Shown: piece by piece, positions 700 to 25,268 of the stretch
Layout: the number at the start of each line of letters is the position of its first letter
How positions within the stretch are numbered: the stretch's first letter is position 1
Notes under the pieces: model-generated
The model's database searches: none
What the model saw: the letters and a program-made list of their open reading frames with translations, nothing else
What the model was told of the DNA's origin: nothing
Position numbers and translations under genes: made by a program
Virus record (IMG/VR): IMGVR_UViG_3300020042_003587
Coordinates: 1 to 25,268 of that record
Source of the DNA: a virus
Taxonomy: Duplodnaviria; Caudoviricetes
Strand: one strand, 5' to 3'
DNA: 25,268 nt

Positions 700-719
700 A
701 TTATAACAAACAAAATACA

Positions 720-971: not shown

Positions 972-974
972 GAT

Positions 975-1717: not shown

Positions 1718-1719
1718 TA

Positions 1720-8490: not shown

Positions 8491-8495
8491 CGAAT

Positions 8496-9240: not shown

Positions 9241-9266
9241 TTTTTTCCACTAATAATTATACAACT

Positions 9267-9842: not shown

Positions 9843-9867
9843 ACACAAATAAAAACAACAACAAAAA

Positions 9868-10797: not shown

Positions 10798-10806
10798 TTA
10801 ATACTC

Positions 10807-10854
10807 CTTTGTTAAAAGAGTGGGTTAGCTAATAGCTGCCCATTCTTTGCAAAG
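10807..10854 (+). terminator. Stem-loop after capsid gene (terminator or mRNA-stabilising hairpin)
   Basis: AAAGAGTGGG(10815-24) pairs with CCCATTCTTT(10839-48), inner AGCT/AGCT, outer CTTTG/CAAAG. The U-tract is weak. Confidence 0.6.
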
Positions 10855-10885
10855 AATATTTTAACTAATTTAATATAAAAAAACA

Positions 10886-11434: not shown

Positions 11435-11458
11435 ATAAATTTGTGCTATCTTTAAAGC

Positions 11459-11869
11459 ATGATTTATTTACTTAAAAATACAGCAGCACAGCTCCTCTAC
11501 CTTACACTAAAGGAAGGGGAGCTTTTGCTTGCTAATAGTTATACGCATTACCTGCTTGAGCTAACTAACGAGCAGACACTTCAAAAGCTTTATGCTATCC
11601 CAACTAAGATAGCAGAGAATGATAGGTATACTACCATTCAGATTGGCACGAATGCCAACACACCAACAGCTGCAAGCTTACTAATTAACTACCCAGCACG
11701 ATTCTCTTACATAGTGTATGGGCAAAATAGCAGCACCAACTTAGATCCAACAGCGGCCACAGTAGAAGGAGTAATTGAGAAAGGATATTTAATTGTTGAA
11801 GACATTACTACTCCTCGCTTTACTGAGCCTAATTTAACTATAGATAATGACATCACCTACAACGGATAA
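11459..11869 (+). CDS. Hypothetical virion protein (136 aa)
   Basis: ORF between tail tube-like gene and portal; beta-rich. Confidence 0.7.
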   Translation: MIYLLKNTAAQLLYLTLKEGELLLANSYTHYLLELTNEQTLQKLYAIPTKIAENDRYTTIQIGTNANTPTAASLLINYPARFSYIVYGQNSSTNLDPTAATVEGVIEKGYLIVEDITTPRFTEPNLTIDNDITYNG

Positions 11870-13625
11870 GATATCAGCTCCAATGCTGGTGAATCTTGGC
11901 GCAGCAATGCCGCAAGAAGCAGTAGAGAAAGAGACTCCTAAAGGCTTTGTGACTTTTGGAGAGGCTAATCTATTTCCTAATTACTTAATCGATTTGTACT
12001 ATAGCTCACCTGTGCACTCTGCACTGACAATGAGCATAGCTTTTATGATTGCAGGGAAGGAATTTAAGAGCTCTAATCTTGCTGCGCAACGTGAGATAGA
12101 CCGATTGAAATTAAATGCAATTAGAAGGCCTATAACGCTTGACGCTAAGATGCATGGTGGTTACTACTTAGAGATTATTTGGTCAGTAGATAGAAGCACT
12201 ATAGCTAAGATTAATCATCTTCCTTATGAGAATGTGAGATTAGCTGTAGCGAATGACGAGGATGTTATACCGGGAGTATATTACTCTAAAGATTGGAATG
12301 ACACACGCAAGAAGAAAAACATTCCTGCGTTTATCCCTATGTATAATCCAACATCTAAAGCTGAAGAGCCTTCTCAGGTGCTATTTGTTGGTATAATGAC
12401 ACCAGGCAGCGCCTACTATCCGAAGCCTGATTACTATTCTGCGATTAATTACATTGAAATCACTCGCGACATTAGCGAATTTTACCGAGCATTTTTAAGT
12501 AATGGAATGGCACCGAGCTACTTCTTGCACATGAATAACGGTATTCCTGATCCCGAAGAGCAAATGGCTATCCGCAGAAATTGGGAGACCATGGTAGGCG
12601 CTAAGAAAGCAGGTAAGGTAGTATTCACTTTCAACGAGTCAGCAGACCGCGCTCCGCGTTTAGACTTAGTTCCTATGTCAGATGCAGATAAGCAATGGCA
12701 AGAGCTTAGCGTGCAGTCAAGAGAGAACATCTTAGCAGCTCATCGCGTTACTTCTCCACTACTTTTTGGTATTAGAGACGCAGGTGGCTTAGGTAGCAAT
12801 GCTGATGAGATGAAACAAGCATATCGCATTTTTAATAAGAATATCATTGAGCCATATCAGCAAATCGTTACAGATTCAATTGAGGAAGTATTTAAAGGTA
12901 TGGGCATTATTGCTGATGTATACATTGAGTCTAATGATATATTCAGCGAAGAAATTCCTACGCCAACTGTTGCACAATCTGCAACAACTCAGCTTGAAAA
13001 AAAAAAGACTAATTTAAGTGATCCACAAGAGAAGCCTCCAATCTTTACAGAAGATGATGAGAATTGGTGGTGTGAATTCTTAGAAGATAAGGGCGAGATA
13101 GTAGATGAAGAGGAATGGGAATTAATCGAAGCTGAGCCTGTTAATTTAGCCTCAGTTAGAAGCTACGCTGATCCTGATAAGCCATCTGAAATGGATAGCG
13201 GATTGTATAAGATTCGTTACGCTTACTCTAAGAATCTTAGCGCTAATAGTCGCAAGTTTTGTAGACAAATGGTAAGCGCATCTAAAGCTGGTTACGTTTA
13301 CAGATACGAAGATTTGCAAGCAATGGAGCCCGATACGAATATCCTTAATCCTAACATGGGCCACAATGGCAGTACGTTCAGCGTGTGGTTATATCATGGG
13401 GGGGTTAACTGTAAACATTACTTTGAGCGCAGAGTATATTTCAGAAAGCGTGAGAAGGGAAGATTTGTAAAAGATAATGGCTTAGAGTCATCTGATCCTA
13501 TCTCAGTAGCAAAAGCTATACGTGCAGGCATGCCTTTAAAGGATATAGCTAAAGGATTTGCTACAGCTAATACTGCAACTTATGACCAATCCTCTACTCA
13601 TGGCAGATATCCAGGAACAAATTAA
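11847..13625 (+). CDS. Portal protein with C-terminal MuF / head-morphogenesis-like extension
   Basis: Residues ~1-365 look like a portal (FGEANLFP..L..LY..SP.H; YYPKPDY; NGMAPS; ILAAHRVTSP.LFGI; IIEPYQ). Then a linker and a ~200-aa domain with SRKFCRQM and GGVNCKHYF. Confidence 0.85.
   Translation: MTSPTTDKISAPMLVNLGAAMPQEAVEKETPKGFVTFGEANLFPNYLIDLYYSSPVHSALTMSIAFMIAGKEFKSSNLAAQREIDRLKLNAIRRPITLDAKMHGGYYLEIIWSVDRSTIAKINHLPYENVRLAVANDEDVIPGVYYSKDWNDTRKKKNIPAFIPMYNPTSKAEEPSQVLFVGIMTPGSAYYPKPDYYSAINYIEITRDISEFYRAFLSNGMAPSYFLHMNNGIPDPEEQMAIRRNWETMVGAKKAGKVVFTFNESADRAPRLDLVPMSDADKQWQELSVQSRENILAAHRVTSPLLFGIRDAGGLGSNADEMKQAYRIFNKNIIEPYQQIVTDSIEEVFKGMGIIADVYIESNDIFSEEIPTPTVAQSATTQLEKKKTNLSDPQEKPPIFTEDDENWWCEFLEDKGEIVDEEEWELIEAEPVNLASVRSYADPDKPSEMDSGLYKIRYAYSKNLSANSRKFCRQMVSASKAGYVYRYEDLQAMEPDTNILNPNMGHNGSTFSVWLYHGGVNCKHYFERRVYFRKREKGRFVKDNGLESSDPISVAKAIRAGMPLKDIAKGFATANTATYDQSSTHGRYPGTN
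12997..13012 (+). other. Candidate recoding site: A10 run containing in-frame A-AAA-AAG heptamer
   Basis: Zero frame reads GAA AAA AAA AAG ACT. The -1 frame reads AAA AAA GAC TAA (stop 13010-13012). The +1 frame stops at 13015-13017. Confidence 0.6.
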
Positions 13626-13636
13626 ACTATAACACA

Positions 13637-14209
13637 ATGGCAATAGCACCCGAAATACTTTTCATTAACGAGGAATTCCTTAAGAAATATACTCAGCTGA
13701 ATGAAGCTGTAGACACTAACTTAATTAGACCTGCAATGTACTTGGCTCAGGATAAGTACATTACTCTTTGGCTTGGAACAGACTTAACTAATAAGATTAA
13801 ATCTGAGATAGAGAATGGCACGTTAGCAGGAGTGTATGAAACATTACTTAATGAATACATCGTTAAGCCTACAGCGTGGTGGACCATGGTAGAGCTTTAC
13901 CCTATGCTCATGTACAAGCATGACAATGGGAACTTAGTTACTCGCCAATCTGAAAACACTACAGCAATCAGTAAGGGTGAGATGGATGCGTTAATAGACA
14001 AAGCTCGCGAGAATGCTAATTGGTACACTCAAAGATTAGTAGATTACTTGTGCGCTAATAATGCAGATTACCCTGAATACAGCTCTAATAATTGGCCCGA
14101 CATTCACCCATTACGCAAGGTGAATAGACAGAGCACTGTAGCTTTTAGCCAAGGTTATTCATCAGATAGCCCATGGAGCAGATTTAACGTGCGAGATTTC
14201 ACTAATTAA
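13637..14209 (+). CDS. Putative head-tail adaptor / connector protein
   Basis: 190 aa, helical, directly after the portal (LFINEEFLKKYT.L...VD..LI.PA...AQD..I...LG). Confidence 0.55.
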   Translation: MAIAPEILFINEEFLKKYTQLNEAVDTNLIRPAMYLAQDKYITLWLGTDLTNKIKSEIENGTLAGVYETLLNEYIVKPTAWWTMVELYPMLMYKHDNGNLVTRQSENTTAISKGEMDALIDKARENANWYTQRLVDYLCANNADYPEYSSNNWPDIHPLRKVNRQSTVAFSQGYSSDSPWSRFNVRDFTN

Positions 14210-14215
14210 GATTAC

Positions 14216-14329
14216 ATGACAAAGGAAGAGAAAACACGTAAAGACTATGAGCGTAAGCTTAAAGTCTACTTAAGCAAACGAGATAAAGAACTTAGAAAGC
14301 ATGAAAGCACCAACAATAGAAGAGCTTAA
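14216..14329 (+). CDS. Small basic hypothetical protein (37 aa, MTKEEKTRKDYERKLKVYLSKRDKELRKHESTNNRRA)
   Basis: Not in the ORF track. Fills the gap and overlaps the endolysin start. Confidence 0.55.
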   Translation: MTKEEKTRKDYERKLKVYLSKRDKELRKHESTNNRRA

Positions 14330-14846
14330 AGCTCAATTTACTGAGCTTGGCTACAAGTGGCCTACAATTCACATAGTAGGCATACGCTCTAAAGCTAATG
14401 AGCCTAATAAATTTGACGATCTAATAGGATTGGTGCAGGGCAACGAGGTGAAGTGGTACACCGGTACAACTAACCCGGGTACTTTTTGGCTGAATAATCC
14501 TATGAATAAATTAGGCACAGCTGTACTGAAGTGCGGACAATACGTAGACACTTGGGTAATAGGCTTGCATCAGGGTAAATACAGCGCTTTAATTCAGTCA
14601 AAGAAGGTTACTGTGCATAGAGATGCCGATAAAGATTCAGTAGCTGAGGAGCAAGGGAAAGAAGATACAGGCTTATTTGGAATTAACATCCATCGCGCTA
14701 ATGAATCTACTGAATCTAAGAATGTAGATAAGTGGAGTGCTGGCTGTCAAGTGCTGAATAATGCAACACAATTCAAAGAGCTTATGCAGGCATGTATTAA
14801 GTCGGGTAAAAAGTCATTCACTTACACACTACTAAAAGAGTCATGA
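14301..14846 (+). CDS. Putative endolysin with L,D-transpeptidase (YkuD)-like His/Cys motif
   Basis: GINIH-x14-SAGCQV resembles the Hx(14-17)[S/T]xGC motif. Directly upstream of holin-like and spanin-like genes. Confidence 0.65.
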   Translation: MKAPTIEELKAQFTELGYKWPTIHIVGIRSKANEPNKFDDLIGLVQGNEVKWYTGTTNPGTFWLNNPMNKLGTAVLKCGQYVDTWVIGLHQGKYSALIQSKKVTVHRDADKDSVAEEQGKEDTGLFGINIHRANESTESKNVDKWSAGCQVLNNATQFKELMQACIKSGKKSFTYTLLKES

Positions 14847-15016
14847 GTCAACAGCAGAGAATAGCAGAAGGAGCTACAGGAGCAATCAGCAGTATTTTAT
14901 TAAATATACCTGCATGGATGTTAGGAGTAGAATTTGCTTTGAAGATATTTTGTTTATTGCTATCAGCAGCTGCATCTATCTTCACCATCTATAAGATGTA
15001 CAAAAAGAAGCGTTAA
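14843..15016 (+). CDS. Putative holin / antiholin (57 aa, two hydrophobic helices, basic C-tail)
   Basis: Not in the ORF track. MSQQQRIAEGATGAISSILLNIPAWMLGVEFALKIFCLLLSAAASIFTIYKMYKKKR, with ATGA and TAATG overlaps on either side. Confidence 0.7.
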   Translation: MSQQQRIAEGATGAISSILLNIPAWMLGVEFALKIFCLLLSAAASIFTIYKMYKKKR

Positions 15017-15261
15017 TGAATTGGTTAAAAAGCATATTCAGTAATGATAAAGATGCCAGCTCTAAAAGAGTAGCATCTATCTTAGCGTTAGTAGTCTGCA
15101 TTAATCTTTCATACATCGGTACGTTTACTGAATATAAGACTCCTGAATACATGTTCGATGGCATGTTAATTTTAGCGGGTAGTGGTTTGGGATTAACAGT
15201 TATTGAGTCTATCTTTGATAAAAAGAAATCTAATGACACGCCAAACGAAGGATCAAATTAA
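15016..15261 (+). CDS. Putative holin (81 aa)
   Basis: SSKRV followed by two hydrophobic segments and a charged C-terminus; within the lysis cassette. Confidence 0.65.
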   Translation: MNWLKSIFSNDKDASSKRVASILALVVCINLSYIGTFTEYKTPEYMFDGMLILAGSGLGLTVIESIFDKKKSNDTPNEGSN

Positions 15262-15589
15262 GTTAGCTGTAGTATTCGGAGCAGCTGTATTTATCTGCAT
15301 ACTCATGCAGCTCATGTATATTAGAATTAAAGAAGATGAGAAAGCTATTGAAGGCTATGAGCGCAGAGCTGATAGAGCTACGCATGTTATTGATTCTTTA
15401 GAAGCTACCAATGTGCAGCGCATGCTTGAGATTGAACAACTGAATGTGCAATTAGAAAGAAATAAAGAAAGATATGAAGCAAACATTAGCGCTATTGATA
15501 GTCTTGACAGGAATGGCTTACGTAGAGCCATGCACAATTTACTCACAAGCCTTACCGGAGAGAGATACGCTGGTCAGCTTAACGACTGA
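15233..15589 (+). CDS. Putative inner-membrane spanin (Rz-like)
   Basis: N-terminal TM helix LAVVFGAAVFICILMQLMYI followed by a coiled coil. ATG at 15233 preferred over 15203. Confidence 0.55.
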   Translation: MTRQTKDQIKLAVVFGAAVFICILMQLMYIRIKEDEKAIEGYERRADRATHVIDSLEATNVQRMLEIEQLNVQLERNKERYEANISAIDSLDRNGLRRAMHNLLTSLTGERYAGQLND

Positions 15590-15872
15590 GCAGGTAAGAG
15601 CGCTACTAAAGTTAAAAGCTGAGCGCGATTATCTATTTAACGCAGTAAACATCTGCGCTAAATCGGATAGCGTTAAGGGTAAAGTGATTACTGATCAGGC
15701 TAAGACTATAGATGCATGGGCCATCACCAACGAAAAGACAGCTCAGCAGTTAGTTAAATCACAAGAGCAGCTATACAAAGAAGCTGCACGTAAAGAATCT
15801 TGGCGCAGCGCAGCGCTAATAAGTATACCTATCTCATTTATAGGGGGTATTATCTTCACTCTATTCTTCTAA
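15474..15872 (+). CDS. Putative spanin partner / lysis accessory membrane protein
   Basis: Signal-peptide-like N-terminus, coiled coil and C-terminal TM helix. Overlaps the upstream gene by 116 nt in another frame. Confidence 0.5.
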   Translation: MKQTLALLIVLTGMAYVEPCTIYSQALPERDTLVSLTTEQVRALLKLKAERDYLFNAVNICAKSDSVKGKVITDQAKTIDAWAITNEKTAQQLVKSQEQLYKEAARKESWRSAALISIPISFIGGIIFTLFF

Positions 15873-15919
15873 GCTAACATTTATTTGTTAATAACTTTGC
15901 TATAATTAGTAAGGTTTCT

Positions 15920-15950
15920 TTTGCTTTTCTAAAATATCGTAGTACATTTG
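15920..15950 (+). promoter_or_regulatory. Bacteroidota housekeeping-sigma promoter for the early operon
   Basis: TTTG(15920-23)-N19-TACATTTG(15943-50) matches the -33/-7 consensus TTTG-N19-21-TAnnTTTG. A second -7-like box, TAACTTTG, lies at 15892-99. Confidence 0.8.
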
Positions 15951-15972
15951 CTAAAATTAAATCAATAAGCAA

Positions 15973-16086
15973 ATGAAAAAAGCACTACTCTTCTTAGCCA
16001 TGCTGATCGCAGGCTTACTCATCGGAGGATCATTCGATGCAGACACTCAACGTTTAGAATCACAACCAAATCACATTAGCAAATGA
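15973..16086 (+). CDS. Small membrane/secreted peptide (37 aa, MKKALLFLAMLIAGLLIGGSFDADTQRLESQPNHISK)
   Basis: Not in the ORF track. First ORF after the early promoter, with ATGA overlap with the next gene. Confidence 0.7.
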   Translation: MKKALLFLAMLIAGLLIGGSFDADTQRLESQPNHISK

Positions 16087-16265
16087 AAACACTTTTTGAA
16101 ATTAAAGAAGTATGCCGCTATGATGGCACTCGTTACTTCCTGTACATTGATGGCTCATGCCAAAAGATGTTCTACACTTACGATGAAGCTTTCGCTGAAT
16201 TCACTTTAGCTACTAACTTCAGAGAGACTACTACAGTCTTAGTTAGCAAGGAGGTAGAGCTATGA
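16083..16265 (+). CDS. Hypothetical protein (60 aa)
   Basis: Coupled small ORF in the early operon. Confidence 0.7.
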   Translation: MKTLFEIKEVCRYDGTRYFLYIDGSCQKMFYTYDEAFAEFTLATNFRETTTVLVSKEVEL

Positions 16266-16492
16266 ATTTTCAAGTAGTAGTTACTCCATTGCGCGAGGAT
16301 AGAATCAGCATGTACCATCGCATGAAAATTCCTACATCATTTGACTGCGAGAGCTTCGCGTTAGCTCAGCAGATGGCACATCTTCTCTTTGACTTATACC
16401 AATTTAGAGAGCTTCCTTTATTCTTAGATGAATGGCCAGGTGAATACTCATTCGAAGGCGAAGGCTTTTTAATTGAGATAAAAGAAATTTAG
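16262..16492 (+). CDS. Hypothetical protein (76 aa)
   Basis: Coupled small ORF (ATGA overlap). Confidence 0.7.
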   Translation: MNFQVVVTPLREDRISMYHRMKIPTSFDCESFALAQQMAHLLFDLYQFRELPLFLDEWPGEYSFEGEGFLIEIKEI

Positions 16493-16517
16493 TATATTAG
16501 CAAACAATTTAATAATC

Positions 16518-16748
16518 ATGAATAAACCAAACAACATTACCGGAAGGGTAATCGTATCTCGGTGGGATGCCGAAGGATGCAAATGGAAGCTGTACACAAA
16601 TGCTCACAGCTACTCTCTAACTGATTTCTCAACAGCAAAAAAGCATGGTGAGGTATTCCCTGACGATGGCACTTTCTTATTCCAATTTGAAAGCGAGGGT
16701 GAAGAGAATGTACATGACTACTTTATGAGTGATCGCTATGTTATCTGA
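16518..16748 (+). CDS. Hypothetical protein (76 aa)
   Basis: ATG after an A-rich leader. Confidence 0.7.
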   Translation: MNKPNNITGRVIVSRWDAEGCKWKLYTNAHSYSLTDFSTAKKHGEVFPDDGTFLFQFESEGEENVHDYFMSDRYVI

Positions 16749-16893
16749 AAGAGCTAAGAGCAGATTCATCTGCGTGCAAAGTTCATTACCGGGAGAGGAG
16801 ATGAACTATAATGAGATGGCATCTAAAGTAGTCTACGAGAGCTGGCGAAGTTATTTCCAAAACAATCCTGATGAGTTACACAAGAGAAGTTAA
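16738..16893 (+). CDS. Hypothetical protein (51 aa, MLSERAKSRFICVQSSLPGEEMNYNEMASKVVYESWRSYFQNNPDELHKRS)
   Basis: Not in the ORF track. Bridges the two neighbouring genes with short overlaps. Confidence 0.65.
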   Translation: MLSERAKSRFICVQSSLPGEEMNYNEMASKVVYESWRSYFQNNPDELHKRS

Positions 16894-17497
16894 TTGGAAT
16901 AAGCTCAAGCCTACCATTGATTGGGATGAGCAGGAAGAAAAGTTAGCAGAAAAATTAGATAAGTATATTAATCAAAACAAAATAAAACAAGTAGTTATGA
17001 ATCAGTCAACAGTTAAAAGTCAGAAATTCGTTAGAAATTGGGATGGCCCATCAGGTACAATCTATTACTTTGATCTTGTATTAGAGAATGGTGAGGTAGG
17101 GCAAGTAGGTGTAAAGGACATGAATAGTCCTAAGATAGCAGTAGGCGCTACCATTCACTACACAAGTGAAGAGCGCACAGGCCCTACAGGTAGAAAGTCA
17201 ACTAACTTTAAACTACAAAATCCTAATCCATTTAATGGAGGAGGTAGCAGCGCAGCTCCATCAGGAGGAAGCTCATACGTGCCTCGCAAAGAATCACCTG
17301 AAGTTCAGAATTCTATCAGCAAATCAGTAGCACTTAATAACGCTGTATTGTTTTGCAAAGAGCAGAAAGGTGCAAAGCCAGGTGATGTATTAGATACAGC
17401 TGAGATATTCTTAGCATGGCTTAAGGGCGAGGCAGTAGAGGCAGTAGAAATTAAAGCAGTAACAAATGAAAGCAGCGACGATGAAATGCCATTCTAA
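16871..17497 (+). CDS. Putative single-stranded DNA-binding protein
   Basis: Beta-rich OB-like N-domain, Gly/Ser/Pro linker and acidic tail ending SSDDEMPF, typical of SSBs. Alternative start at 16997. Confidence 0.6.
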   Translation: MSYTREVNWNKLKPTIDWDEQEEKLAEKLDKYINQNKIKQVVMNQSTVKSQKFVRNWDGPSGTIYYFDLVLENGEVGQVGVKDMNSPKIAVGATIHYTSEERTGPTGRKSTNFKLQNPNPFNGGGSSAAPSGGSSYVPRKESPEVQNSISKSVALNNAVLFCKEQKGAKPGDVLDTAEIFLAWLKGEAVEAVEIKAVTNESSDDEMPF

Positions 17498-17699
17498 ATT
17501 AACACCGTTCCACAGCTGGGTACGCAGTCACTTTGTGACTGTGGCTCAGTTTGCGGAGGTGCTTGAGGTGAGTTACCCTACAGCACAGAAGTATATTAAG
17601 CAGCCACGATCTATGAAGGTAAGCGACATAGGTAAGCTGTCTAATGTTACTGAGGAAGAGATACCATACATTTTAGAACTAATGAAGGATAGCAAATGA
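17466..17699 (+). CDS. Helix-turn-helix DNA-binding protein (Cro/XRE-like)
   Basis: TVAQFAEVLEVSYPTAQKYIKQPRSMKVSDIGKLS. Start could be a few codons downstream. Confidence 0.7.
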   Translation: MKAATMKCHSKLTPFHSWVRSHFVTVAQFAEVLEVSYPTAQKYIKQPRSMKVSDIGKLSNVTEEEIPYILELMKDSK

Positions 17700-18181
17700 G
17701 CAACGCAGTAGAGAAAAAGATAGCAGATTTAATCTTATTGATTCCATCGGAGCAGCAGCAATACGCACGCAGACGAATTGATAACTTAGTTAGAGCTGTA
17801 ATAGAGACACCGATACCCGAGCTTAAGTGGCAGACGATTAATGGTGAGGTGGAATCTTTAAATGAGCAGCAAGTAAATAAGATGATGAAGGTAGTCTGCA
17901 AGCTCACCCAGGTAGATTGGTCAGAGCTTAAGGGCAAGTGCAGAAAGCGTGAGATTAATGATATCAGGCAGACGTCTATGTGGATCTTGCGTAAGGGTAC
18001 TTCGCTAAGCTTTGCTAACATCGGTACTATATTCAACCGACATCATGCTACTGTGCTGCACGCTGTTGAATCGGTTAACAATATGATTGAAACTGATAGC
18101 ATGTACAGAGGTCAGGTGGAGCAGATTCTAAATCACATAGATAACGAGAGGCTCACTAAAGCCTTTGAAAAATTAACTTAA
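17696..18181 (+). CDS. Stand-alone DnaA C-terminal (domain IV) DNA-binding protein
   Basis: LKGKCRKREINDIRQTSMWILRKGTSLSFANIGTIFNRHHATVLHAVESV matches the DnaA domain IV basic loop and HTH signature. No AAA+ domain. Confidence 0.85.
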   Translation: MSNAVEKKIADLILLIPSEQQQYARRRIDNLVRAVIETPIPELKWQTINGEVESLNEQQVNKMMKVVCKLTQVDWSELKGKCRKREINDIRQTSMWILRKGTSLSFANIGTIFNRHHATVLHAVESVNNMIETDSMYRGQVEQILNHIDNERLTKAFEKLT

Positions 18182-18194
18182 TCAATAATCAATC

Positions 18195-18578
18195 ATGAAG
18201 CAATTAACCATCAGTTACGATACCGGTAAGGTAACAATCGAAAGGGTAAAAAGAGTCTGCGTATTAATTAACGCAGGCATGACTCCCAGCGCAGCGCTAA
18301 GAACTGAGCGTATGGGTAAACAATACCTACAACTATTGAGAGAGGTAGGCATTATTAAGAAGGTAGGCTCACGCGAGTGGGAAGCTGCTAAGCATCTTAG
18401 GCAAGATAAGTTTAATCAGTTTATTGAGGCAAAGAATAAGTATTACGAAAACATTCAAGCCACTAAAGCAGATACTGATATGCTCGGTTTAGTCAATATG
18501 CCTAAGTCAGCACCTATAAAAAAAGCAGTAGCCTTGCCATGGTGGAAGAGATTTCTTCTATATTTGCTCAATCACTAA
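18195..18578 (+). CDS. Hypothetical protein (127 aa), possibly DNA-binding, amphipathic C-terminus
   Basis: ORF with A-rich leader; ends LPWWKRFLLYLLNH. Confidence 0.7.
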   Translation: MKQLTISYDTGKVTIERVKRVCVLINAGMTPSAALRTERMGKQYLQLLREVGIIKKVGSREWEAAKHLRQDKFNQFIEAKNKYYENIQATKADTDMLGLVNMPKSAPIKKAVALPWWKRFLLYLLNH

Positions 18579-18590
18579 TCAATTAAACCA

Positions 18591-18914
18591 ATGATGACTA
18601 TTCTATTAAGGCGCATAGAGGCGCTTGAGGAGAGGGTAAAAGCGCTTGAAACAAAGCGCTCTGCCTCTACCAAATTCACACCCCCATCACTCTCAGATGT
18701 AGTAGCTTACATGGATGACTTAGTTCTATCTAAGAAATTCTACTGCCACTATGAGAGCAACGGTTGGAAGGTAGGCAAGAATTCCATGAAGAGCTGGAGA
18801 GCAGCAGCAGATCAGTGGAAAGCAAGAGAGATTAACAATAAAAAAACTACAGAAGATGAGCAAAGAATTGGCCGCATTAGTAGACAAGAGCTTCAGTCGT
18901 TCACTCAGCGCTGA
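18591..18914 (+). CDS. Replication-initiator-like protein (C-terminal domain type)
   Basis: FTPPSLSDV..Y...FYCHYESNGWKVGKNSMKSWRAAA..W resembles the C-terminus of Bacteroidota phage replication proteins. The N-terminus is only a short coiled coil. Confidence 0.6.
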   Translation: MMTILLRRIEALEERVKALETKRSASTKFTPPSLSDVVAYMDDLVLSKKFYCHYESNGWKVGKNSMKSWRAAADQWKAREINNKKTTEDEQRIGRISRQELQSFTQR

Positions 18915-19602
18915 AGAGAAGGCTATAGCTGAATGCATTAGCTCACCTAAGCTTCACTCATTATCTGAGCAGGAGTTTAGAGAGCTTATAGCGCAGGCTG
19001 CTGTAATCAATTCTATTAAAGCTTTACCTTCAGATATAGAAGTTACTCTGCTTCAGCAACTTACTCAGTCTACTTATAGAAGTACATCAATTAAAGATTG
19101 GCAAAATGCTTTCTTGTATAATGCCATCGGTAAAGACTTCGAAAGAGTAGAGGCGTTCAACTTATTCAGCATAAGCTTTATGGCCGATGTGCTTAAGCGT
19201 TATGAGGAATATAAGAGCAAAGTGTGGCGAGAGCTGAACAAATCTTTAATCTTACCGGAAGCACAGTCTAAACCTATAGAGCCTACTGATCCTATTACAG
19301 CTTTGCATGAAGATGCAGAGCGCTATAAGAATGGTAAAGAAACATGGGTAGAAATCTCTGCACCGTACAACTGCCAGCGCCTCTTTAGAAAAGGTATCTA
19401 TAAGAAGTCTCAATGGCTGCCTGAAGTATGGGAACGCTTTGAAGATATTGCTAAGCAGAAAATAGAGGCTAAATTTAAGGCATCTAACAAAGTTATCTTA
19501 GGAGAATCTGCACAGTCTGAATTTGATGCTCTGCAAAAGATAGAGCTGAGCCGAATAGTTTACATAGATATTATTAAACAAATTAACAAAGAGAAATCAT
19601 GA
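18856..19602 (+). CDS. Hypothetical protein, possible helicase loader / initiator partner
   Basis: 248 aa, helical, overlapping the initiator-like gene. Function inferred from position only; no Walker A motif seen. Confidence 0.55.
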   Translation: MSKELAALVDKSFSRSLSAEEKAIAECISSPKLHSLSEQEFRELIAQAAVINSIKALPSDIEVTLLQQLTQSTYRSTSIKDWQNAFLYNAIGKDFERVEAFNLFSISFMADVLKRYEEYKSKVWRELNKSLILPEAQSKPIEPTDPITALHEDAERYKNGKETWVEISAPYNCQRLFRKGIYKKSQWLPEVWERFEDIAKQKIEAKFKASNKVILGESAQSEFDALQKIELSRIVYIDIIKQINKEKS

Positions 19603-19844
19603 CAAGAGAAAGGTTTCAAGAGCTCATCTATATTCATGAAGAGATAGATGATTTAAGAACTAAAATAGTAGACTTAACAAGAGCTAAAAAAAGAAAGCCT
19701 GAGCTTTACATACCTAAAGAATTTGGCTATTCAATTTCTATAGTTTACATCAGTAATGAAAATTATGAAAGCATTATTGATTATGAGATTGAAAAATGCC
19801 AAGAGCAAATAGAAACATTAACTAAAGAATTTGAAAAATCATGA
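19599..19844 (+). CDS. Hypothetical protein (81 aa)
   Basis: ATGA overlaps on both sides. Confidence 0.7.
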   Translation: MTRERFQELIYIHEEIDDLRTKIVDLTRAKKRKPELYIPKEFGYSISIVYISNENYESIIDYEIEKCQEQIETLTKEFEKS

Positions 19845-20035
19845 TACCATTCCACAAATCAATTAAGTGCTATAGACTTTTTTACGGCTATAAGCAAGAC
19901 TACCTGGCATACAAGTTAGGCATAGAGCAAAGTAATTACTGCCTTCGCGAGCAGGGCATAAGCAACTTTAAAGACCATGAGATAGAGATTCTTAAAGACT
20001 TGTTTAGAATAGAGATTCGGGAGGAGAAGCTGTGA
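19841..20035 (+). CDS. XRE-family helix-turn-helix protein
   Basis: IKCYRLFYGYKQDYLAYKLGIEQSNYCLREQG fits the XRE HTH pattern. Confidence 0.8.
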   Translation: MIPFHKSIKCYRLFYGYKQDYLAYKLGIEQSNYCLREQGISNFKDHEIEILKDLFRIEIREEKL

Positions 20036-21021
20036 AGCATGGCTCACTATTCAGCGGAATCGGTGGATTCGATTTGGCTGCCGAATGGATGGGATGGGAT
20101 AACATCTTTCACTGCGAATGGATGCCATTTCCACGCAAAGTATTAAATCATTATTGGCCTAATTCTATAAGTTATGAAGATATCACAAAAACAGATTTCA
20201 CTATTCACAGAGGAACAATTGACATACTCACAGGCGGGTTTCCTTGTCAACCATACTCAAGCGCAGGTAAGCGACTTGGGAAAGAGGACGAGCGACACCT
20301 CTGGCCGCATATGCTCAGAGTCATTTCAGAAGTTAAACCAACCTACGTCGTGGGCGAAAACGTTCGCGGACTTACTAATTGGAATGGGGGAGTGGTCTTC
20401 GAAGAAGTGTGCGTTGACTTGGAAAGTCAAGGGTACACCGTACAACCGATACTTTTGCCAGCTTGTGCCGTCGGTGCGCCACACCGAAGAGATAGAGTTT
20501 GGTTCGTCGCTTACAATGCTGCCTACTCCAATAGCAGGAGATTGGAAGGGACAGAGGAGATCAGATGGAACAGCATCAATGCTGAGTGGGAAAGCGAGTT
20601 TGGGATTACTTCCAACACCAACTTGCTTCGACAGCACGAACGCGAGTGCAACAATGAAGAGTTCACAAGTGAAGGAGGGATCAATGCACTCAATGACATT
20701 GCCGAGAATGTTGAGTATGGGGCTGCTGCATACCCCAAGAACATCGGACAAGAATATGCATTGGAAAACGGAGAACTGGAAAGGGGACGATTTAGGCAGT
20801 CAAATAAACGAGGCTTTTGGAACGCGTTCCCATCTCAATCCCCGATTTGTGGCGGAGATGATGGGCTTCCCACCGAATTGGACGGAATTACCTTTTCAAA
20901 GTGGCGACAAGAATCTATAAAGGGTTATGGTAATGCAATCGTTCCACAGGTTGCCTATGAAATTTTCAAGGTAATTGCTGAAATGGATGCAAGAGAAAAG
21001 GCACAACTGAAATTATTTTAG
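20032..21021 (+). CDS. DNA (cytosine-5)-methyltransferase, catalytic (alpha) polypeptide
   Basis: Motif I SLFSGIGG, IV GGFPCQ, VI ENV, VIII PHRRDRVW, X GYGNAIVP. No recognisable motif IX in this frame. GTG start overlaps the upstream stop. Confidence 0.92.
   Translation: MKHGSLFSGIGGFDLAAEWMGWDNIFHCEWMPFPRKVLNHYWPNSISYEDITKTDFTIHRGTIDILTGGFPCQPYSSAGKRLGKEDERHLWPHMLRVISEVKPTYVVGENVRGLTNWNGGVVFEEVCVDLESQGYTVQPILLPACAVGAPHRRDRVWFVAYNAAYSNSRRLEGTEEIRWNSINAEWESEFGITSNTNLLRQHERECNNEEFTSEGGINALNDIAENVEYGAAAYPKNIGQEYALENGELERGRFRQSNKRGFWNAFPSQSPICGGDDGLPTELDGITFSKWRQESIKGYGNAIVPQVAYEIFKVIAEMDAREKAQLKLF
20174..20920 (+). CDS. Nested +1-frame gene: putative beta polypeptide of the C5-methyltransferase (TRD-like repeats and motif IX)
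   Basis: 248 stop-free codons inside the MTase gene, with three L[P/H]TP..xD repeats and LNPRFVAEMMGFPPNWT, resembling motif IX (LTPRE.ARLQGFP). Confidence 0.8.
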   Translation: MKISQKQISLFTEEQLTYSQAGFLVNHTQAQVSDLGKRTSDTSGRICSESFQKLNQPTSWAKTFADLLIGMGEWSSKKCALTWKVKGTPYNRYFCQLVPSVRHTEEIEFGSSLTMLPTPIAGDWKGQRRSDGTASMLSGKASLGLLPTPTCFDSTNASATMKSSQVKEGSMHSMTLPRMLSMGLLHTPRTSDKNMHWKTENWKGDDLGSQINEAFGTRSHLNPRFVAEMMGFPPNWTELPFQSGDKNL

Positions 21022-21046
21022 GCATTTCTTCCACTAACAATAAGAG

Positions 21047-21075
21047 AGCTCAGCATAACGCTGGGCTTTTTTATT
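21047..21075 (+). terminator. Rho-independent terminator ending the early operon
   Basis: AGCTCAGC-ATAAC-GCTGGGCT followed by TTTTTATT. Confidence 0.85.
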
Positions 21076-21087
21076 AATCTTTATCGT

Positions 21088-21438
21088 ATGAATCTATTTA
21101 GAAAGAAGAAGGAAGTAGTAGATTTAAATGCGAAGCTGCTGCCTGAGTTATGCAGCACTTACATAGTTCAGTGGAACTATACCGAGGATATCGGAATGGA
21201 GGCTATCTATGCGGATAACGTGCCTTTTATGTTTGATGCTCGCAAATGTGTGGGCATCCAGGCTGAAGTAGAATTTAGAAGTGATGGCACTTACTACGTA
21301 GGGCAGCGCACAATAGCACTGATGCAAGGCATTGATAACGGAATAGTAATAGATGTGCCTTACAACGAATTTAAGAAGCATTTTCAGGAGCTTAAATCTA
21401 ATATTATAACTAATGATTACATCATATCGAGAGGGTAG
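21088..21438 (+). CDS. Hypothetical protein (116 aa)
   Basis: First ORF after the terminator; overlaps the phosphoesterase gene. Confidence 0.7.
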   Translation: MNLFRKKKEVVDLNAKLLPELCSTYIVQWNYTEDIGMEAIYADNVPFMFDARKCVGIQAEVEFRSDGTYYVGQRTIALMQGIDNGIVIDVPYNEFKKHFQELKSNIITNDYIISRG

Positions 21439-22291
21439 AAATGTCATAGTAACTACTTGCAAAAGCGGGGATAAATTCTTAATGATGAGCGACATCCATT
21501 GGGACAATCCTCACTGCGACAGGAAGCTACTTAAGGCGCATTTAGATAAGTGCTTAGAAGAAAACATCTACTTTGCTATAAACGGGGACTTATTTTGTTG
21601 CATGATGGGGAAGTACGATCCACGTAGAAGCAAGCAGGACATTCGCCCGGAGCACAACGTGGCAAATTACTTAGACGCATTAGTGAACACAGCTATAGAT
21701 TGGTTTAAGCCTTATGCTCATTTAATGGTTTTCGTAGGCTATGGTAATCATGAGACAGCCATTACTAAAAACTGTGAGACTGATTTAATAGAGCGCTTTG
21801 TTAGTGGTTTAAATCGCGAAGCTGGATCTAATGTATTAGTAGGTGGCTATGGCGGATGGTGGATTCATCGCGTGAGCAAGGGAAAGAGCAGCAGCTTTAT
21901 TTTCAAAACTAAATACTACCATGGATCAGGTGGAGGAGGAGTGGTTACGAAGGGAGTAATTCAGAATAATAGAATGGGAGTTATGATTGATGGCGCTGAC
22001 TGCATTTGGAGTGGTCACGTGCATGAACTTTACCACCATGCAGATATGGTAGAGGAGTTATGCTACAGCCCAGGCAATAGCTATAGAATTAACATGCGCT
22101 ACGTGCATCACATTAGAACAGCAAGCTATAAAGAAGAGTATGATGAGGGCTACATGGGCTTTCACGTGGAGCGAATGAGACCTCCTAAACCTTTGGGCGC
22201 TTACCTATTAGAATTAAATTTAGAAAGAATTAGAACTCCTGTAGATACTCACATCATTGTACCTAATTTTGTACAATGGCGGGACAAATAG
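21413..22291 (+). CDS. Calcineurin-like metallophosphoesterase
   Basis: All five motifs present: SDIH, NGDLF, GNHE, YHG, GHVH. Confidence 0.88.
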   Translation: MITSYREGRNVIVTTCKSGDKFLMMSDIHWDNPHCDRKLLKAHLDKCLEENIYFAINGDLFCCMMGKYDPRRSKQDIRPEHNVANYLDALVNTAIDWFKPYAHLMVFVGYGNHETAITKNCETDLIERFVSGLNREAGSNVLVGGYGGWWIHRVSKGKSSSFIFKTKYYHGSGGGGVVTKGVIQNNRMGVMIDGADCIWSGHVHELYHHADMVEELCYSPGNSYRINMRYVHHIRTASYKEEYDEGYMGFHVERMRPPKPLGAYLLELNLERIRTPVDTHIIVPNFVQWRDK

Positions 22292-23595
22292 ACTATAACT
22301 TTAAGCCACTAACGAGGCAAAGCGAAGCACTTAAATTCTTATCAGTAGACTCAGACGTTGAAACTATACTCTACGGAGGAGCAGCAGGCGGTGGTAAAAC
22401 TATGCTCGGCTGCATGTGGCAGATTCTTAGACGTTTAAAATACCCAGGCACACGATCTCTAATAGGCCGAGCTAAGTTAGATACGCTTAAAAAGACTACT
22501 ATGGCTACCTTCTTTCAGGTGGCTAATGAGATAGGCTTAAAGGCAGGAGAAGATTTTATCTATAATCAGCAATCACACATCATTAAATTTAGCAATGGCT
22601 CAGAGATAATACTTGCCGATTTGTTTCTCTATCCATCAGATCCCATGATGACGGATTTAGGGGGCTTGGAAGTTACAGATGTATTCATAGATGAAGCTAC
22701 AGAAATAACTGAGAAAGCTTATTCTATTGTTAGCTCACGTATACGTTATAAGCTTAAAGAATTTGGCCTTAAGCCTAAGATTTTACTCACGTGTAACCCA
22801 TCTAAGGGATGGATTTATAATCAGTTTTACTTGCCTTACAAGAATCAAAATCTGCCTGCTCACAGAGCATTCGTGCAGGCACTACCTGGGGACAATATAC
22901 ACTTACCTGATTCTTACGTTACAAGCTTAACGAGATTACCCGAAGCTGATAGAAAGAGACTGTTAGAGGGAGACTGGGAATTTGATAATAGCTCAGATAG
23001 ATTATACATGTACGATGAACTGATGCGCTGCTTCAGAGAGCCAATGAATGTAGGAGAGGGATATATCACAGCAGACATCGCGCGATTAGGAAAGGATAGA
23101 ACTGTGCTTTGTGTGTGGAAAGGCTTAAGCTGCATAGATATAGTTATACTGCGCCAAAAGAGACAGGATGAAGTTAAGGCAGAAATACAGCGGTTAATGA
23201 ATCAGCACCAAGTTAGACTAAGCAACGTACTTGCAGATGCTGATGGGGTGGGGGGAGGTCTCGTTGACAGCCTTCGATGCAGGGAATTTATGAATGGAAG
23301 CAAAGCTGTGAGGGGTACTCAGTACATGAATCTAAAAGCTGACTGCTACTTTAGATTAGGAGAGCTGATAGATAAAAATGAGATTACTCTGCCTATTAAA
23401 TATCAGGAAGATATAGTGAAAGAGCTTGAGTTAATAAGACGTGTTGATCCTGATAAGGAAGGAAAGCTAAGAGTAACAAGTAAAGATACCATAAGCCAGC
23501 GCACCGGTGGAATATCTCCCGATATAGCTGATGCTATCATGATGCGAGCTTACTTTGAGCTTAATAGAAATTATACTAAGTACGCTTTTATCTAA
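22276..23595 (+). CDS. terL: Terminase large subunit
   Basis: Walker A GGAAGGGKT, Walker B VFIDEA, coupling motif TCNP, nuclease acidic residues in ADIAR, DADGVGGG and SPDIADA. Confidence 0.93.
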   Translation: MAGQIDYNFKPLTRQSEALKFLSVDSDVETILYGGAAGGGKTMLGCMWQILRRLKYPGTRSLIGRAKLDTLKKTTMATFFQVANEIGLKAGEDFIYNQQSHIIKFSNGSEIILADLFLYPSDPMMTDLGGLEVTDVFIDEATEITEKAYSIVSSRIRYKLKEFGLKPKILLTCNPSKGWIYNQFYLPYKNQNLPAHRAFVQALPGDNIHLPDSYVTSLTRLPEADRKRLLEGDWEFDNSSDRLYMYDELMRCFREPMNVGEGYITADIARLGKDRTVLCVWKGLSCIDIVILRQKRQDEVKAEIQRLMNQHQVRLSNVLADADGVGGGLVDSLRCREFMNGSKAVRGTQYMNLKADCYFRLGELIDKNEITLPIKYQEDIVKELELIRRVDPDKEGKLRVTSKDTISQRTGGISPDIADAIMMRAYFELNRNYTKYAFI

Positions 23596-23597
23596 AG

Positions 23598-23891
23598 AAA
23601 AGTGTAATCCATTACATTTATTCGTACTTAAAAGTGTAATAGAGTCCCATTAAAGTATTATTTAACAGTCATTAGGGCGCTAAAAGACACGTTATGCATG
23701 ATATAACATACTTTAATATGAGTTAGATGCTATTAATAACATCTTTGTCGCAAGTATAGTAGACTTTTGCGACAGCTATAGTAGAAAATAATCTACAAAA
23801 TCAGGCTTATTGTGGAAAATACTCCCCAAAATTATATCTAAAAGCTCCTAATATTTACAACTTTTAGGATTTAATATGCAATTAGATATAA
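23598..23891. repeat. Cluster of imperfect palindromes and 31-32-bp-spaced direct repeats
   Basis: AAAAGTGTAAT at 23598 and 23630; GTTA...TAAC units at 23691 and 23722; GT[A/G]GAAAATA at 23781 and 23812; TGTCGCAA/TTGCGACA at 23746-23774; TTATATCTAA/TTAGATATAA at 23832-23891. Confidence 0.7.
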
Positions 23892-23923
23892 ACTAAAATA
23901 GCCCTGCACGTTTGCAAGGCTAT
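23889..23923 (-). terminator. Minus-strand Rho-independent terminator
   Basis: Minus strand reads ATAGCCTTGCA-AACG-TGCAGGGCTAT-TTTAGTTT. The stem has a U-G pair and a U-tract only in this orientation. Confidence 0.75.
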
Positions 23924-23969
23924 CTCAGAATCAATAATCAATGTTAGCCTAAACCAAAAGCTAAATGGA
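23890..23969 (-). ncRNA. Candidate ~80-nt trans-acting antisense small RNA
   Basis: Bounded by a TATCTTTG -7 box and a terminator, with no credible ORF. Contains complements of AATCAATAATCAAT and TAAACCAAA, which occur at the start regions of early genes. Ends are approximate. Confidence 0.6.
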
Positions 23970-23973
23970 TGCT

Positions 23974-23981
23974 CAAAGATA
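23974..23981 (-). promoter_or_regulatory. Bacteroidota -7 promoter box for the candidate sRNA
   Basis: Plus-strand CAAAGATA reads TATCTTTG on the minus strand (TAnnTTTG). The -33 element is only a partial match (TTA at 20-nt spacing). Confidence 0.6.
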
Positions 23982-23995
23982 CTATCTAAATCCTA

Positions 23996-24027
23996 TGTGA
24001 ATAAGTATGTTAACAAGATGTGGATAG
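23996..24027. promoter_or_regulatory. Three co-oriented DnaA-box-like 9-mers
   Basis: TGTGAATAA (23996, matches TTWTNCACA on the reverse strand), TGTTAACAA (24008, degenerate) and TGTGGATAG (24019, one mismatch). Start-to-start spacing 12 and 11 bp. Confidence 0.55.
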
Positions 24028-24044
24028 CGCTTAAGTTAATTAAC

Positions 24045-24052
24045 TAATTTTG
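24045..24052 (+). promoter_or_regulatory. Bacteroidota -7 box for the VRR-NUC / sigma operon
   Basis: TAATTTTG ending 4 nt before the ATG at 24057. Confidence 0.55.
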
Positions 24053-24056
24053 AATC

Positions 24057-24401
24057 ATGAAGAACGAGGAAGCACTCATACAGGAAGCAGTTATTAACTA
24101 TATTAATGCTCAATATCCTCGGCTGCTTTATTGTGCCTCAGCTGGAGGTGTTCGCACTTCTATGAAGCAAGCGGTAAAGATGAAGAAAACAGGGTATGTT
24201 AAAGGCTTCCCTGATATCTTTATCTATCACGCTAAGGGCACATTCTTTGGCTTAGCTATTGAAATGAAAACAGCTAAGGGTGTAATGAGTCAAAGCCAAA
24301 AGGATTGGCAGCATAAGCTTATTACTAATAACTACTACGCATGTACATGTAAGAGCTTTGATGAAGCTAAAAAAGTCATAGATGAATACATGGCGCTCTG
24401 A
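24057..24401 (+). CDS. VRR-NUC domain nuclease (PD-(D/E)xK; possible Holliday junction resolvase)
   Basis: EEALIQ, G..KGFPDIFI, LAIEMK, G.MS.SQK.W motifs. Confidence 0.85.
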   Translation: MKNEEALIQEAVINYINAQYPRLLYCASAGGVRTSMKQAVKMKKTGYVKGFPDIFIYHAKGTFFGLAIEMKTAKGVMSQSQKDWQHKLITNNYYACTCKSFDEAKKVIDEYMAL

Positions 24402-24882
24402 GTTTGATAAGTGTTATTTAGAGTGGCGCAGAGTAGCCCATAGCGTGGTGCGTGCAGATGTAGCAGATGAGTTACTCCATGACACGCTATTAAAGATTCT
24501 TGAGAGTGATAAAGATAAGTTACAGGATATCCACAACAGAGGCAAGCTAAACAATTACGTAAGCAATAGCATAAGACTTGCTGCACGCTGTAGTAACAGT
24601 TCATTCAATTACTCTTTGAGAAGATTCGAAAAGATACGTAATGATCTGAAAGATGATATCATTGATGATGTGAATAAGAGTGTAGGAATGCGTTTAGAGA
24701 ATGAGCAGTTAGATATCTTCATCAGCAGACTACCATACTTTGAGCGTGAGCTATTCTTTCTTTACGCATTGGATGACTTCAGCTATCAGGCATTAGCAGA
24801 TGAGACTGGAATACCTTTGAACTATCTTTACCGGACAATTAAGAAAGCTAAATTAACACTTAGAAATTCATTACAGATATGA
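24382..24882 (+). CDS. Phage RNA polymerase sigma factor (ECF-like, regions 2 and 4)
   Basis: ADELLHDTLLKIL (region 2) and ISRLPYFERELFFLYALDDFSYQALADETGIPLNYLYRTIKKAKLTLR (region 4 HTH). Confidence 0.8.
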   Translation: MNTWRSEFDKCYLEWRRVAHSVVRADVADELLHDTLLKILESDKDKLQDIHNRGKLNNYVSNSIRLAARCSNSSFNYSLRRFEKIRNDLKDDIIDDVNKSVGMRLENEQLDIFISRLPYFERELFFLYALDDFSYQALADETGIPLNYLYRTIKKAKLTLRNSLQI

Positions 24883-25268
24883 TGATTAACACAACCGACT
24901 TCGAAGCTCGCGTTAAAGTCTGCAAAGATTGCCCTGTGTACAATAAGACATTCGGTACATGTGGGCCTCCTGTTAACGCGATTAATCCATTCAAGCAGCC
25001 TCACACAATTGGAGAGGTAACATTCAAGCCTTGTGGTTGCCCTGTGGATCACTTAGCATCTTACGCTGCTACTGACTGCCCAGCTAAGCTATGGCCTAAG
25101 CTTGAGGAGAAAGATTGGAAGATGCCAACGCTTGAACACATCAGAGCTATTAAGCAAAGAGGTAGACTTGCACCGGGTGAGATGGCTAAGCTGTTTAAAT
25201 TGAGACGTGAATATCTTGGAATAAGAGACGGCAAGAACTTCACAAGCTGCACTCCCTGCATGAATGAC
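24879..25268 (+). CDS. Cys-rich putative metal-binding protein (3' truncated by window edge)
   Basis: Not in the ORF track. 130 open codons: MMINTTDFEARVKVCKDCP...GTCG...KPCGC...DCPAKLW...TSCTPC. ATGA overlap with the sigma gene. Confidence 0.75.
   Translation, partial: MMINTTDFEARVKVCKDCPVYNKTFGTCGPPVNAINPFKQPHTIGEVTFKPCGCPVDHLASYAATDCPAKLWPKLEEKDWKMPTLEHIRAIKQRGRLAPGEMAKLFKLRREYLGIRDGKNFTSCTPCMND

Follow-up and report, generated by a model that had tools for sequence, protein, structure and literature searches.

A conserved minus-strand unit in a tailed phage genome encodes a predicted small RNA that likely pairs in trans with several early gene starts

Genome and gene setting

The window analyzed here, a stretch of 25,268 nucleotides, is a whole record and comprises most of the length of a ~30-kb tailed phage genome, in which every annotated gene lies on the plus strand (Table 1). 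Structural and lysis genes are followed by an early/replication block and then, beyond the plus-strand terminator at 21039-21075, 5' of which lie all four predicted targets discussed below, by the gene for the large terminase subunit. A spacer of 461 nt (23596-24056) separates the terminase gene from that for a VRR-NUC protein, and it is in this spacer that the minus-strand unit described here is located. Among the early genes, the protein with the DnaA domain IV (17696-18181) is a stand-alone domain with an altered recognition motif, and two ORFs, 20032-21021 and 20174-20920, overlap in different frames and both match DNA methyltransferase families, so that they possibly represent a two-polypeptide or frameshifted C5 methylase.

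The -7 consensus of Bacteroidota sigma-A promoters is TAnnTTTG, with the box at -12..-5 (PMC9723704). Such boxes before the operons of the window, along with leaders that contain no Shine-Dalgarno sequence, suggest a host from the Bacteroidota. Neither a relative of the terminase nor the RNA pattern was found in GTDB genomes, and the sole match among GenBank phages was a weak one, to the terminase of Cellulophaga phi10:1. A freshwater origin of the phage is no more than tentatively indicated, by one weakly matching run.

Table 1. Features of the window relevant to the predicted small RNA (sRNA) and its candidate targets
Feature	Position	Strand	Evidence and remarks
Structural and lysis genes	1-15872	+	
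Target 1 (weakest): 5' UTR of the first early gene (15973-16086)	15960..15975	+	behind -7 box 15943-15950 with consensus -33; rank 4/40
Early/replication block	15973-21021	+	
Target 2: leader, AUG and codons 2-5 of the 76-aa gene e4 (16518-16748)	16510..16531	+	variant -7 box 16493-16500; rank 3/40
Phage protein with DnaA C-terminal HTH domain	17696-18181	+	PF08299, E 1.5e-18; matches DnaA domain IV structures
Target 3: leader of the 127-aa gene MKQ (18195-18578)	18180..18197	+	14/14 match
Target 4: 5' UTR of MMT (18591-18914)	18570..18593	+	behind -7 box 18559-18566; both seeds match; rank 1/40
Intrinsic terminator	21039-21075	+	likely 3' close of the early block with all four targets
Terminase large subunit	22276-23595 (with -7 box from 22264)	+	convergent with the sRNA unit; nuclease gene in same region
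Predicted sRNA, ~80-81 nt	23889..23969	-	layout in 79/80 relatives and in lineages B and C; predicted +1 at 23969
Intrinsic terminator hairpin and U-tract of sRNA	23889..23928	-	96.4% of cells paired; 4/13 pairs with two-sided changes
Single-stranded seed A, two GAUU units	23929..23943	-	invariant columns; unpaired in consensus structure
5' hairpin with seed B (23949-23958) in its loop	23944..23964	-	fold; 3/3 counted pairs with two-sided changes, 98.8% of cells paired
Sigma-A -7 box (TAnnTTTG) of sRNA	23974-23981	-	conserved alignment columns; consensus from PMC9723704
Cluster of three DnaA-box-like 9-mers (23996, 24008, 24019)	23996..24027	.	over the sRNA -33 region, between two divergent promoters
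Divergent operon	24045-24882	+	-7 box 24045-24052; VRR-NUC gene 24057-24401; sigma-70-like gene 24382-24882

The predicted minus-strand RNA

A preliminary description of this DNA had proposed that the spacer holds a promoter, a short non-coding stretch and an intrinsic terminator, all on the minus strand. Every string that it quoted was found where it had been placed, and the predicted RNA folds as described, with a hairpin of 7 bp followed by an unpaired stretch and then the terminator (z -3.6, largely due to the terminator). The box and the layout stand, whereas the +1 moves from 23970 to 23969 given a box at -12..-5. Four other minus-strand TAnnTTTG boxes exist, none of which has an adjoining terminator in the terminator list. 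The terminator hairpin of the sRNA with its U-tract is the strongest terminator-like site in 15800-25268.

The six terminator stem variants of the closest group of relatives, lineage A (introduced below), are all more stable on the minus strand, a count that is biased by G/U richness, so that the orientation rests mainly on the promoter and the U-tract. Two plus-strand readings of the same DNA were rejected. The hairpin is unlikely to serve as a plus-strand terminator, no plus-strand site being listed there, and the plus-strand micro-ORF, Met-Leu-Ala-stop, is not a gene, as had been said, its ATG being present in just 15 of 48 distinct lineage-A copies. By the same count, the "anti-AUG" end of the RNA is not conserved. 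Ten contigs from one freshwater metatranscriptome (7% of words), which are blind to strand and small RNAs, include none over 23776-24151.

Upstream of the -7 box, a -33 TTG element is found in 0 of 80 copies. The 9-mers that overlie this region are DnaA-box-like by comparison with the DnaA-box consensus; two of them stand at the sRNA promoter in 79 of the 80 lineage-A copies, and a similar 9-mer precedes the early promoter in all eight loci examined, from three lineages (15886-15894 in the window).

Conservation among related phages

A protein search with VRR-NUC returned 137 relatives, and in the best 80 of these, which constitute lineage A, the layout of the unit is present in 79, the remaining locus being cut short. 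Hardly any variation is seen across 57 distinct copies in the box, the loop or the open seed, in contrast to the 5' bases and the stems; two-sided changes occur in 7 of 16 base pairs, with 96.9% of cells paired, compared with at most 2 pairs and 53% for slid controls. The DNA between the terminase gene and the unit ranges from 1 to 392 nt in lineage A, with the terminase stop codon directly adjoining the terminator in 21 loci; the unit is thus retained independently of the spacer. The spacer itself (23596-23888 in the window; also in loci L194-L205 and L234-L240) is a mosaic of short palindromic modules, and an inverted repeat at ~23741-23775 is common to seven lineage-B and two lineage-C loci (some B contigs being counted twice) despite diverged flanking genes.

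The sister lineages B and C (terminase ~77% and 82% identical, respectively) also possess a minus-strand unit after the terminase gene, consisting of a promoter, a hairpin, an open stretch and a terminator, with seeds that differ from those of A. The unit was detected in all 10 lineage-B loci reported by a promoter-terminator scan, which excluded L204 (too short) and L201, and in 5 of 5 lineage-C loci that extend past the terminase. A terminase tree of 21 rows, with A subsampled to 8, supports each of the three lineages as a clade and favors no particular order of branching among them. Retention of promoter, seed and terminator in relatives, the comparison proposed at the outset, is accordingly observed in all three lineages. 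The DnaA-HTH protein is retained in lineage C.

A search for a fourth lineage through sigma homologues with at most 41% identity (28 and 21 loci) yielded no syntenic unit in the loci covered by a simple promoter-terminator scan, and the early module is inverted in these loci; a profile search with e4 detected no further lineage. In the distant relatives (L206-L233 and L251-L271), the early operon is divergent from the sigma gene and starts near the position of the sRNA promoter in lineages A to C, which may make this promoter a relic of an inversion. Short promoter-to-terminator units also occur in these phages with inverted modules (L232, plus strand, 6216; L230, plus strand, 2034; L252, plus strand, 5117, and minus strand, 5248), the one in L232 facing the terminase end.

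Predicted targets at early gene starts

The complementarities noted in the preliminary description were all recovered, namely, the 14/14 match at 18180-18193, the 13/14 match at 18570-18583 followed by a second word that runs up to the ATG at 18591, the match at 15960-15968 before the ATG at 15973, and the matches within 16510-16531. When duplex energies of the two seeds were summed for 40 hand-listed starts, of which one (coordinate 15242) is not at an ATG, the start regions of MMT (18591), MKQ (18195), e4 (16518) and the first early gene (15973) took ranks 1 to 4 in this order. With a single-seed score applied to 12 loci, the ranks of the targets are scattered from 1 to 22 of 29-42 starts. 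Three of the target genes are the first behind -7 boxes, so that their short 5' UTRs consist of the matched words; the fourth, MKQ, lacks such a box of its own in the window. No match between the spacer 23596-24056 and the rest of the window is longer than the 14-nt identity between 23929-23942 and 18180-18193, and when the window was simulated 300 times with a third-order Markov model, an exact match of at least 14 nt to the RNA body appeared in 3 of the simulations. The leaders of the capsid and tail genes are A-rich as well and do not pair with the seeds, so that pairing at the targets is not mere A-richness.

As for the products of these genes, MMT is similar to annotated replication initiators in their C-terminal part. 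MKQ is likely a winged-helix DNA-binding protein, judging from a structural model that combines a winged helix with a long helix and produces weak matches to DNA-binding proteins (Z about 5); in lineage A, MKQ comes in at least two alleles that are 30-45% identical, and seed words occur in the leaders of both. The model of e4 is confident, with no fold match above Z 4.3, and the ESM Atlas returned no usable match for either e4 or MKQ. A possible fifth target lies outside the window, in the late region ~2.2-2.5 kb after VRR-NUC, where a 12-13-nt match to seed A is situated ~20-30 nt before the ATG of a gene in several relatives (L001 at ~9567, L069 at ~12237 and L068 at ~12519).

Restriction of the matched words to early starts was assessed in lineage-A loci with mechanically called ORF starts. 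The word AATCAATAA occurs at 20 of 214 early and 0 of 404 late starts, TAAACCAAA at 32 of 214 and 0 of 404, and the shorter AATAATCA at 41 early and 10 late starts; the words are thus enriched at early starts and nearly absent from late ones, which answers the concern that late genes might carry them equally often. The advantage of the targets over other starts exceeds that of shuffled RNAs in 12 of 12 loci (six from A, three from B and three from C; z -2.3 to -7.3), the real value being reached by 0 of 25 shuffles in ten loci and 1 of 25 in two. The A words are present in 29 and 34 of 69 lineage-A target regions, in 0 and 2 of 168 controls, and in no target of B or C; the B and C words in the same comparison were chosen after seeing the sequences.

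These distributions bear on the possibility that the RNA acts mainly on A-rich leaders in mRNAs of the host or of unrelated phages, its match to leaders of the phage itself being a by-product of a common vocabulary. The U-rich seeds and the A-rich leaders of Bacteroidota would fit such an arrangement, and the phage sRNAs PreS, VpdS and DicF act on host mRNAs according to the account given in PMC12197685. However, the two longer words, AATCAATAA and TAAACCAAA, are rare in outgroup phages (3 and 1 of 511 starts) and absent from the phage's own A-rich late leaders, and the seeds change together with the phage's own leaders and codons, as detailed in the next section. We regard this explanation as highly improbable.

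Joint change of seeds and leaders

The targets in lineages B and C were picked by homology, not by pairing, and therefore provide independent tests. All duplexes considered are AU-rich, with energies of about -6 to -15 kcal/mol, and co-folding cannot model loop-kissing. When A and B were crossed, leaving out eight lineage-A "first gene" rows that proved to be a lysis gene, target leaders of A favored A over B RNAs in 85 of 92 cases, compared with 76 of 276 for A controls; B leaders favored B RNAs in 20 of 24 cases, and B controls favored A RNAs in 24 of 59. A three-way test on subsamples, with four RNAs and up to four leaders per cell, found the RNA of the same lineage to be the best partner for 38 of 47 target leaders (10/16, 13/16 and 15/15 for A, B and C) versus 26 of 82 controls (4/28, 4/28 and 18/26), the lineage-C RNAs being sticky in that they are also best in 18 of 26 of their own controls. 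In lineage A, leaders of the first early gene favor B RNAs (0 of 4 for their own), whereas in C this gene does show the own-lineage preference.

The clearest case of joint change in the sequences of seed and target is e4. A two-site duplex is predicted for it in A, B and C, in which the leader would be bound by the open seed, and the AUG or first codons by the loop or 5' seed. These codons (MNKP in A, MTK or MSR in B, MTQ in C) match the loop or the 5' seed lineage by lineage. One or two further early genes of lineage C begin with the same nine bases as e4.

Within lineages, covariation of single bases is mixed. An A inserted in seed A is accompanied by an inserted A in the MKQ leader (9 of 10 distinct lineage-A rows versus 1 of 26), perhaps a single event in related genomes. 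Codon 2 of MMT in lineage B (AAT or AAC) matches the RNA base in five of six loci, the exception being L205. Codon 2 of e4 in lineage A does not track the loop, a matching loop accompanying one of eight AAC alleles, and within lineage A an RNA pairs with its own leaders no better than that of a clade-mate does. With three lineages, we count two or three independent seed switches, and treat the rows within a lineage as relatives only. The expectation that seeds and leaders should co-vary is borne out between the three lineages and, for the inserted base, within lineage A too.

The same data speak to an account in which the words act as DNA, either as operators for phage proteins or as sequences spread by functionless recombination, with RNA pairing incidental. 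The words lie directly 3' of three early promoters, the phage encodes several HTH proteins, and the spacer adjoining the unit is highly mosaic, all of which such an account would accommodate. It does not readily explain why the spacing of the words varies by insertions, why the sites track the AUG, enter codons and occur at a gene without a promoter of its own, or why compensatory and G-U pairs restore the stems around the seeds, with a terminator following in one orientation. We consider it very unlikely.

Proposed mode of action and role

Comparison of the genomes establishes the unit and its orientation, its predicted stems, its complementarity to early starts and restriction to them, and the joint change of seed and target in three lineages. 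In comparative terms, this is a real, conserved and uncatalogued RNA unit, with good evidence for predicted pairing with the phage's own early starts, and the reading as a trans-acting sRNA is supported by the layout in relatives, the enrichment at early starts and the covariation of seeds and leaders. The RNA predicted from the conserved unit (23969-23889, minus strand) likely pairs in trans with the four early starts and likely lowers their translation, a reading to which we assign a probability of roughly 0.64.

The host sigma-A polymerase would transcribe the predicted sRNA, which would then pair at two sites, its open seed with the A-rich leader and its loop or 5' seed with the AUG or the bases adjoining it. 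Bacteroidia initiate translation on unstructured leaders with A at -3, -6, -12 and -13, by the account in PMC8710568. A duplex over about -20 to +14 would likely block initiation; we infer repression because initiation in Bacteroidota needs an unstructured A-rich leader and because the Bacteroides sRNAs GibS and FopS repress in this manner. The RNA could instead protect or activate the same leaders, for instance, by keeping nucleases away from the 5' ends of the short early UTRs, given that three of the four sites are at predicted transcript 5' ends. Yet unstructured leaders offer nothing for the RNA to open, the AUG lies inside the e4 duplex in each of the three lineages, and MKQ lacks a -7 box of its own in the window; we find this alternative highly improbable.

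Messages of the terminase gene and of the VRR-NUC/sigma operon would escape repression. The -7 box of the terminase gene (TAnnTTTG/A) is located 4 nt before the ATG in all 43 loci counted, from three lineages, and the +1 of VRR-NUC falls on or one base before the ATG in 32 of 32 lineage-A loci. Transcription would thus start on the ATG or one base ahead of it, and both messages are predicted to lack a leader and hence not to be addressable by the sRNA. The terminase box overlaps a conserved protein end, which could be an alternative cause of its conservation. No plus-strand terminator is listed between the terminase and VRR-NUC genes (23596-24056), so that read-through from the terminase gene would yield RNA complementary to the whole sRNA, which it could titrate.

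What the regulation is for can be suggested with less assurance. Delayed negative control, damping the early and replication-initiation genes as infection proceeds, is the most likely role, which we hold at somewhat less than even odds. The sRNA promoter has no -33 element and is overlaid by the DnaA-like boxes, so that, speculatively, the phage protein with the DnaA-type HTH (17696-18181) or host DnaA may time it through the 9-mers. No integrase was detected among 20 cluster representatives of the 252 ORFs unmatched in the window, out of 1177 distinct ORFs of at least 110 aa in the loci, a scan that excludes short singleton ORFs. This makes early shut-off or timing likelier than lysogenic immunity, a carrier state being still compatible; of the roles raised originally, an early-to-late switch is favored and an immunity factor is the less likely.

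The same pairing and repression might nevertheless serve a dormant or carrier state or superinfection immunity, as with the C4 RNA of phages P1 and P7. The RNA would then hold the early genes of a resident phage silent and shut down those of an incoming phage from the same lineage, and the divergence of seeds would define immunity groups. The choice of targets is compatible with this, as they include genes that open early transcripts, one for a likely DNA-binding protein and one that is initiator-like, and so are the lineage-specific seeds, the specificity of C4 residing in a variable loop as described in PMC5320573. Counting against it, besides the lack of an integrase in the 20 representatives, are the failure of terminase and RNA-pattern searches to find a copy in GTDB genomes and the position of the sole ParB-like gene, which adjoins the small terminase gene in lineage B. 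On balance, a role in dormancy or immunity seems unlikely.

A broader version of the timing role, which we put forward as a rather doubtful proposal, is that in non-integrating Bacteroidota phages the early-to-late transition is conducted by a multi-seed sRNA acting as an "address reader": lineage-specific address words in leaders and N-terminal codons would co-evolve with the RNA, the leaderless terminase and sigma messages would escape, the DnaA-type HTH protein would time the promoter, and terminase read-through would form an antisense sponge. If so, divergence of the addresses would sort co-infecting phages into cross-silencing groups, and a lytic phage would employ an RNA-based developmental switch in place of a protein repressor. 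More generally, the candidate RNA would co-regulate several early genes of the phage that encodes it, in a phylum that has neither Shine-Dalgarno pairing nor Hfq. Because seeds, leaders and first codons switch together, the three lineages offer natural matched and mismatched RNA-leader pairs, with which the rules of sRNA repression on leaders devoid of Shine-Dalgarno sequences are directly testable in Flavobacterium or Bacteroides, the phage's own host not being needed. Compact orthogonal translation switches for Bacteroidota may be a possible use.

Comparison with known small RNAs

As in trans-encoded sRNAs generally, there is a dedicated promoter, 12 nt before the predicted +1, an intrinsic terminator and no ORF, along with conserved exposed seeds that have short complementarity to distant mRNA starts. 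The absence of a recognizable family, noted in the preliminary description, agrees with our failure to find a family-level Rfam match. In the literature covered here, including parts of PMC12197685, PMC2864571 and PMC5415839, no account was found of this RNA or of any sRNA from a Bacteroidota phage that is directed at several genes of the phage itself; large catalogues of candidate structured phage RNAs could hold it unnamed.

The analogy to C4 drawn originally applies to the mode of action and not to family membership, the Rfam model (RF01695) giving no row at E values up to 5 or 10 with the window or with a lineage-B or -C copy. The targets of C4 lie within the operon of C4 itself. As outlined in PMC5320573, C4 of P1/P7 is likewise phage-encoded and ~77-80 nt in length, with two pairing elements, one of them over a ribosome-binding region, and variable-seed specificity; it differs in having three stem-loops, in being cut from a precursor by RNase P and in its role in lysogeny and immunity. 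The three stem-loops P1-P3 of C4 are not found in the present unit, whose consensus shows two stems, as do the copies of lineages B and C. It also carries a promoter and a terminator of its own and is predicted to act on four distant targets, in phages where no integrase was found.

Antisense RNAs such as OOP and aQ of lambda, sar of P22, as15 of PAK_P4 and STnc6030 of BTP1 also base-pair with phage genes but, as summarized in PMC12197685, have one target gene each, in contrast to the short, imperfect, multi-target pairing in trans predicted here. PreS (lambda), VpdS (VP882), 24B_1 (Stx phage) and DicF (Qin) are trans-acting phage sRNAs as well; in the same source, they are described as Hfq-linked, present in Proteobacteria and directed mostly at host mRNAs or one antirepressor gene. 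The phage sRNAs covered there thus either are one-gene antisense RNAs or act on host mRNAs in Proteobacteria, and the present unit differs from both.

The closest likeness is to FopS and GibS of Bacteroides thetaiotaomicron (PMC11697453 and PMC7366714), which, by these accounts, share with it an AU-rich single-stranded seed, an intrinsic terminator and pairing at initiation regions that contain no Shine-Dalgarno sequence. FopS, in addition, has a Bacteroidota sigma-A promoter, represses the first cistrons of several operons and is reported in sequence from one phage (PMC11697453), GibS uses two seeds (PMC7366714), and Bacteroides is said in these sources to have no obvious Hfq (PMC7366714 and PMC11697453). 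FopS produced no Rfam row with the window or the lineage-B and -C copies, and the best score for GibS (RF04182), from a single lineage-B region, was 25.4 bits (E 0.19) against a cut-off of 115. The phage unit is distinguished from both by being single-copy and phage-encoded, by having the phage's own early genes as predicted targets and by an extra hairpin that presents a seed (in A and C); its seeds differ even between lineages A, B and C. The best reading of these sequence comparisons is a phage-encoded trans-acting sRNA that would block several early starts, similar in action to GibS and FopS and distinct from C4, GibS and FopS alike.
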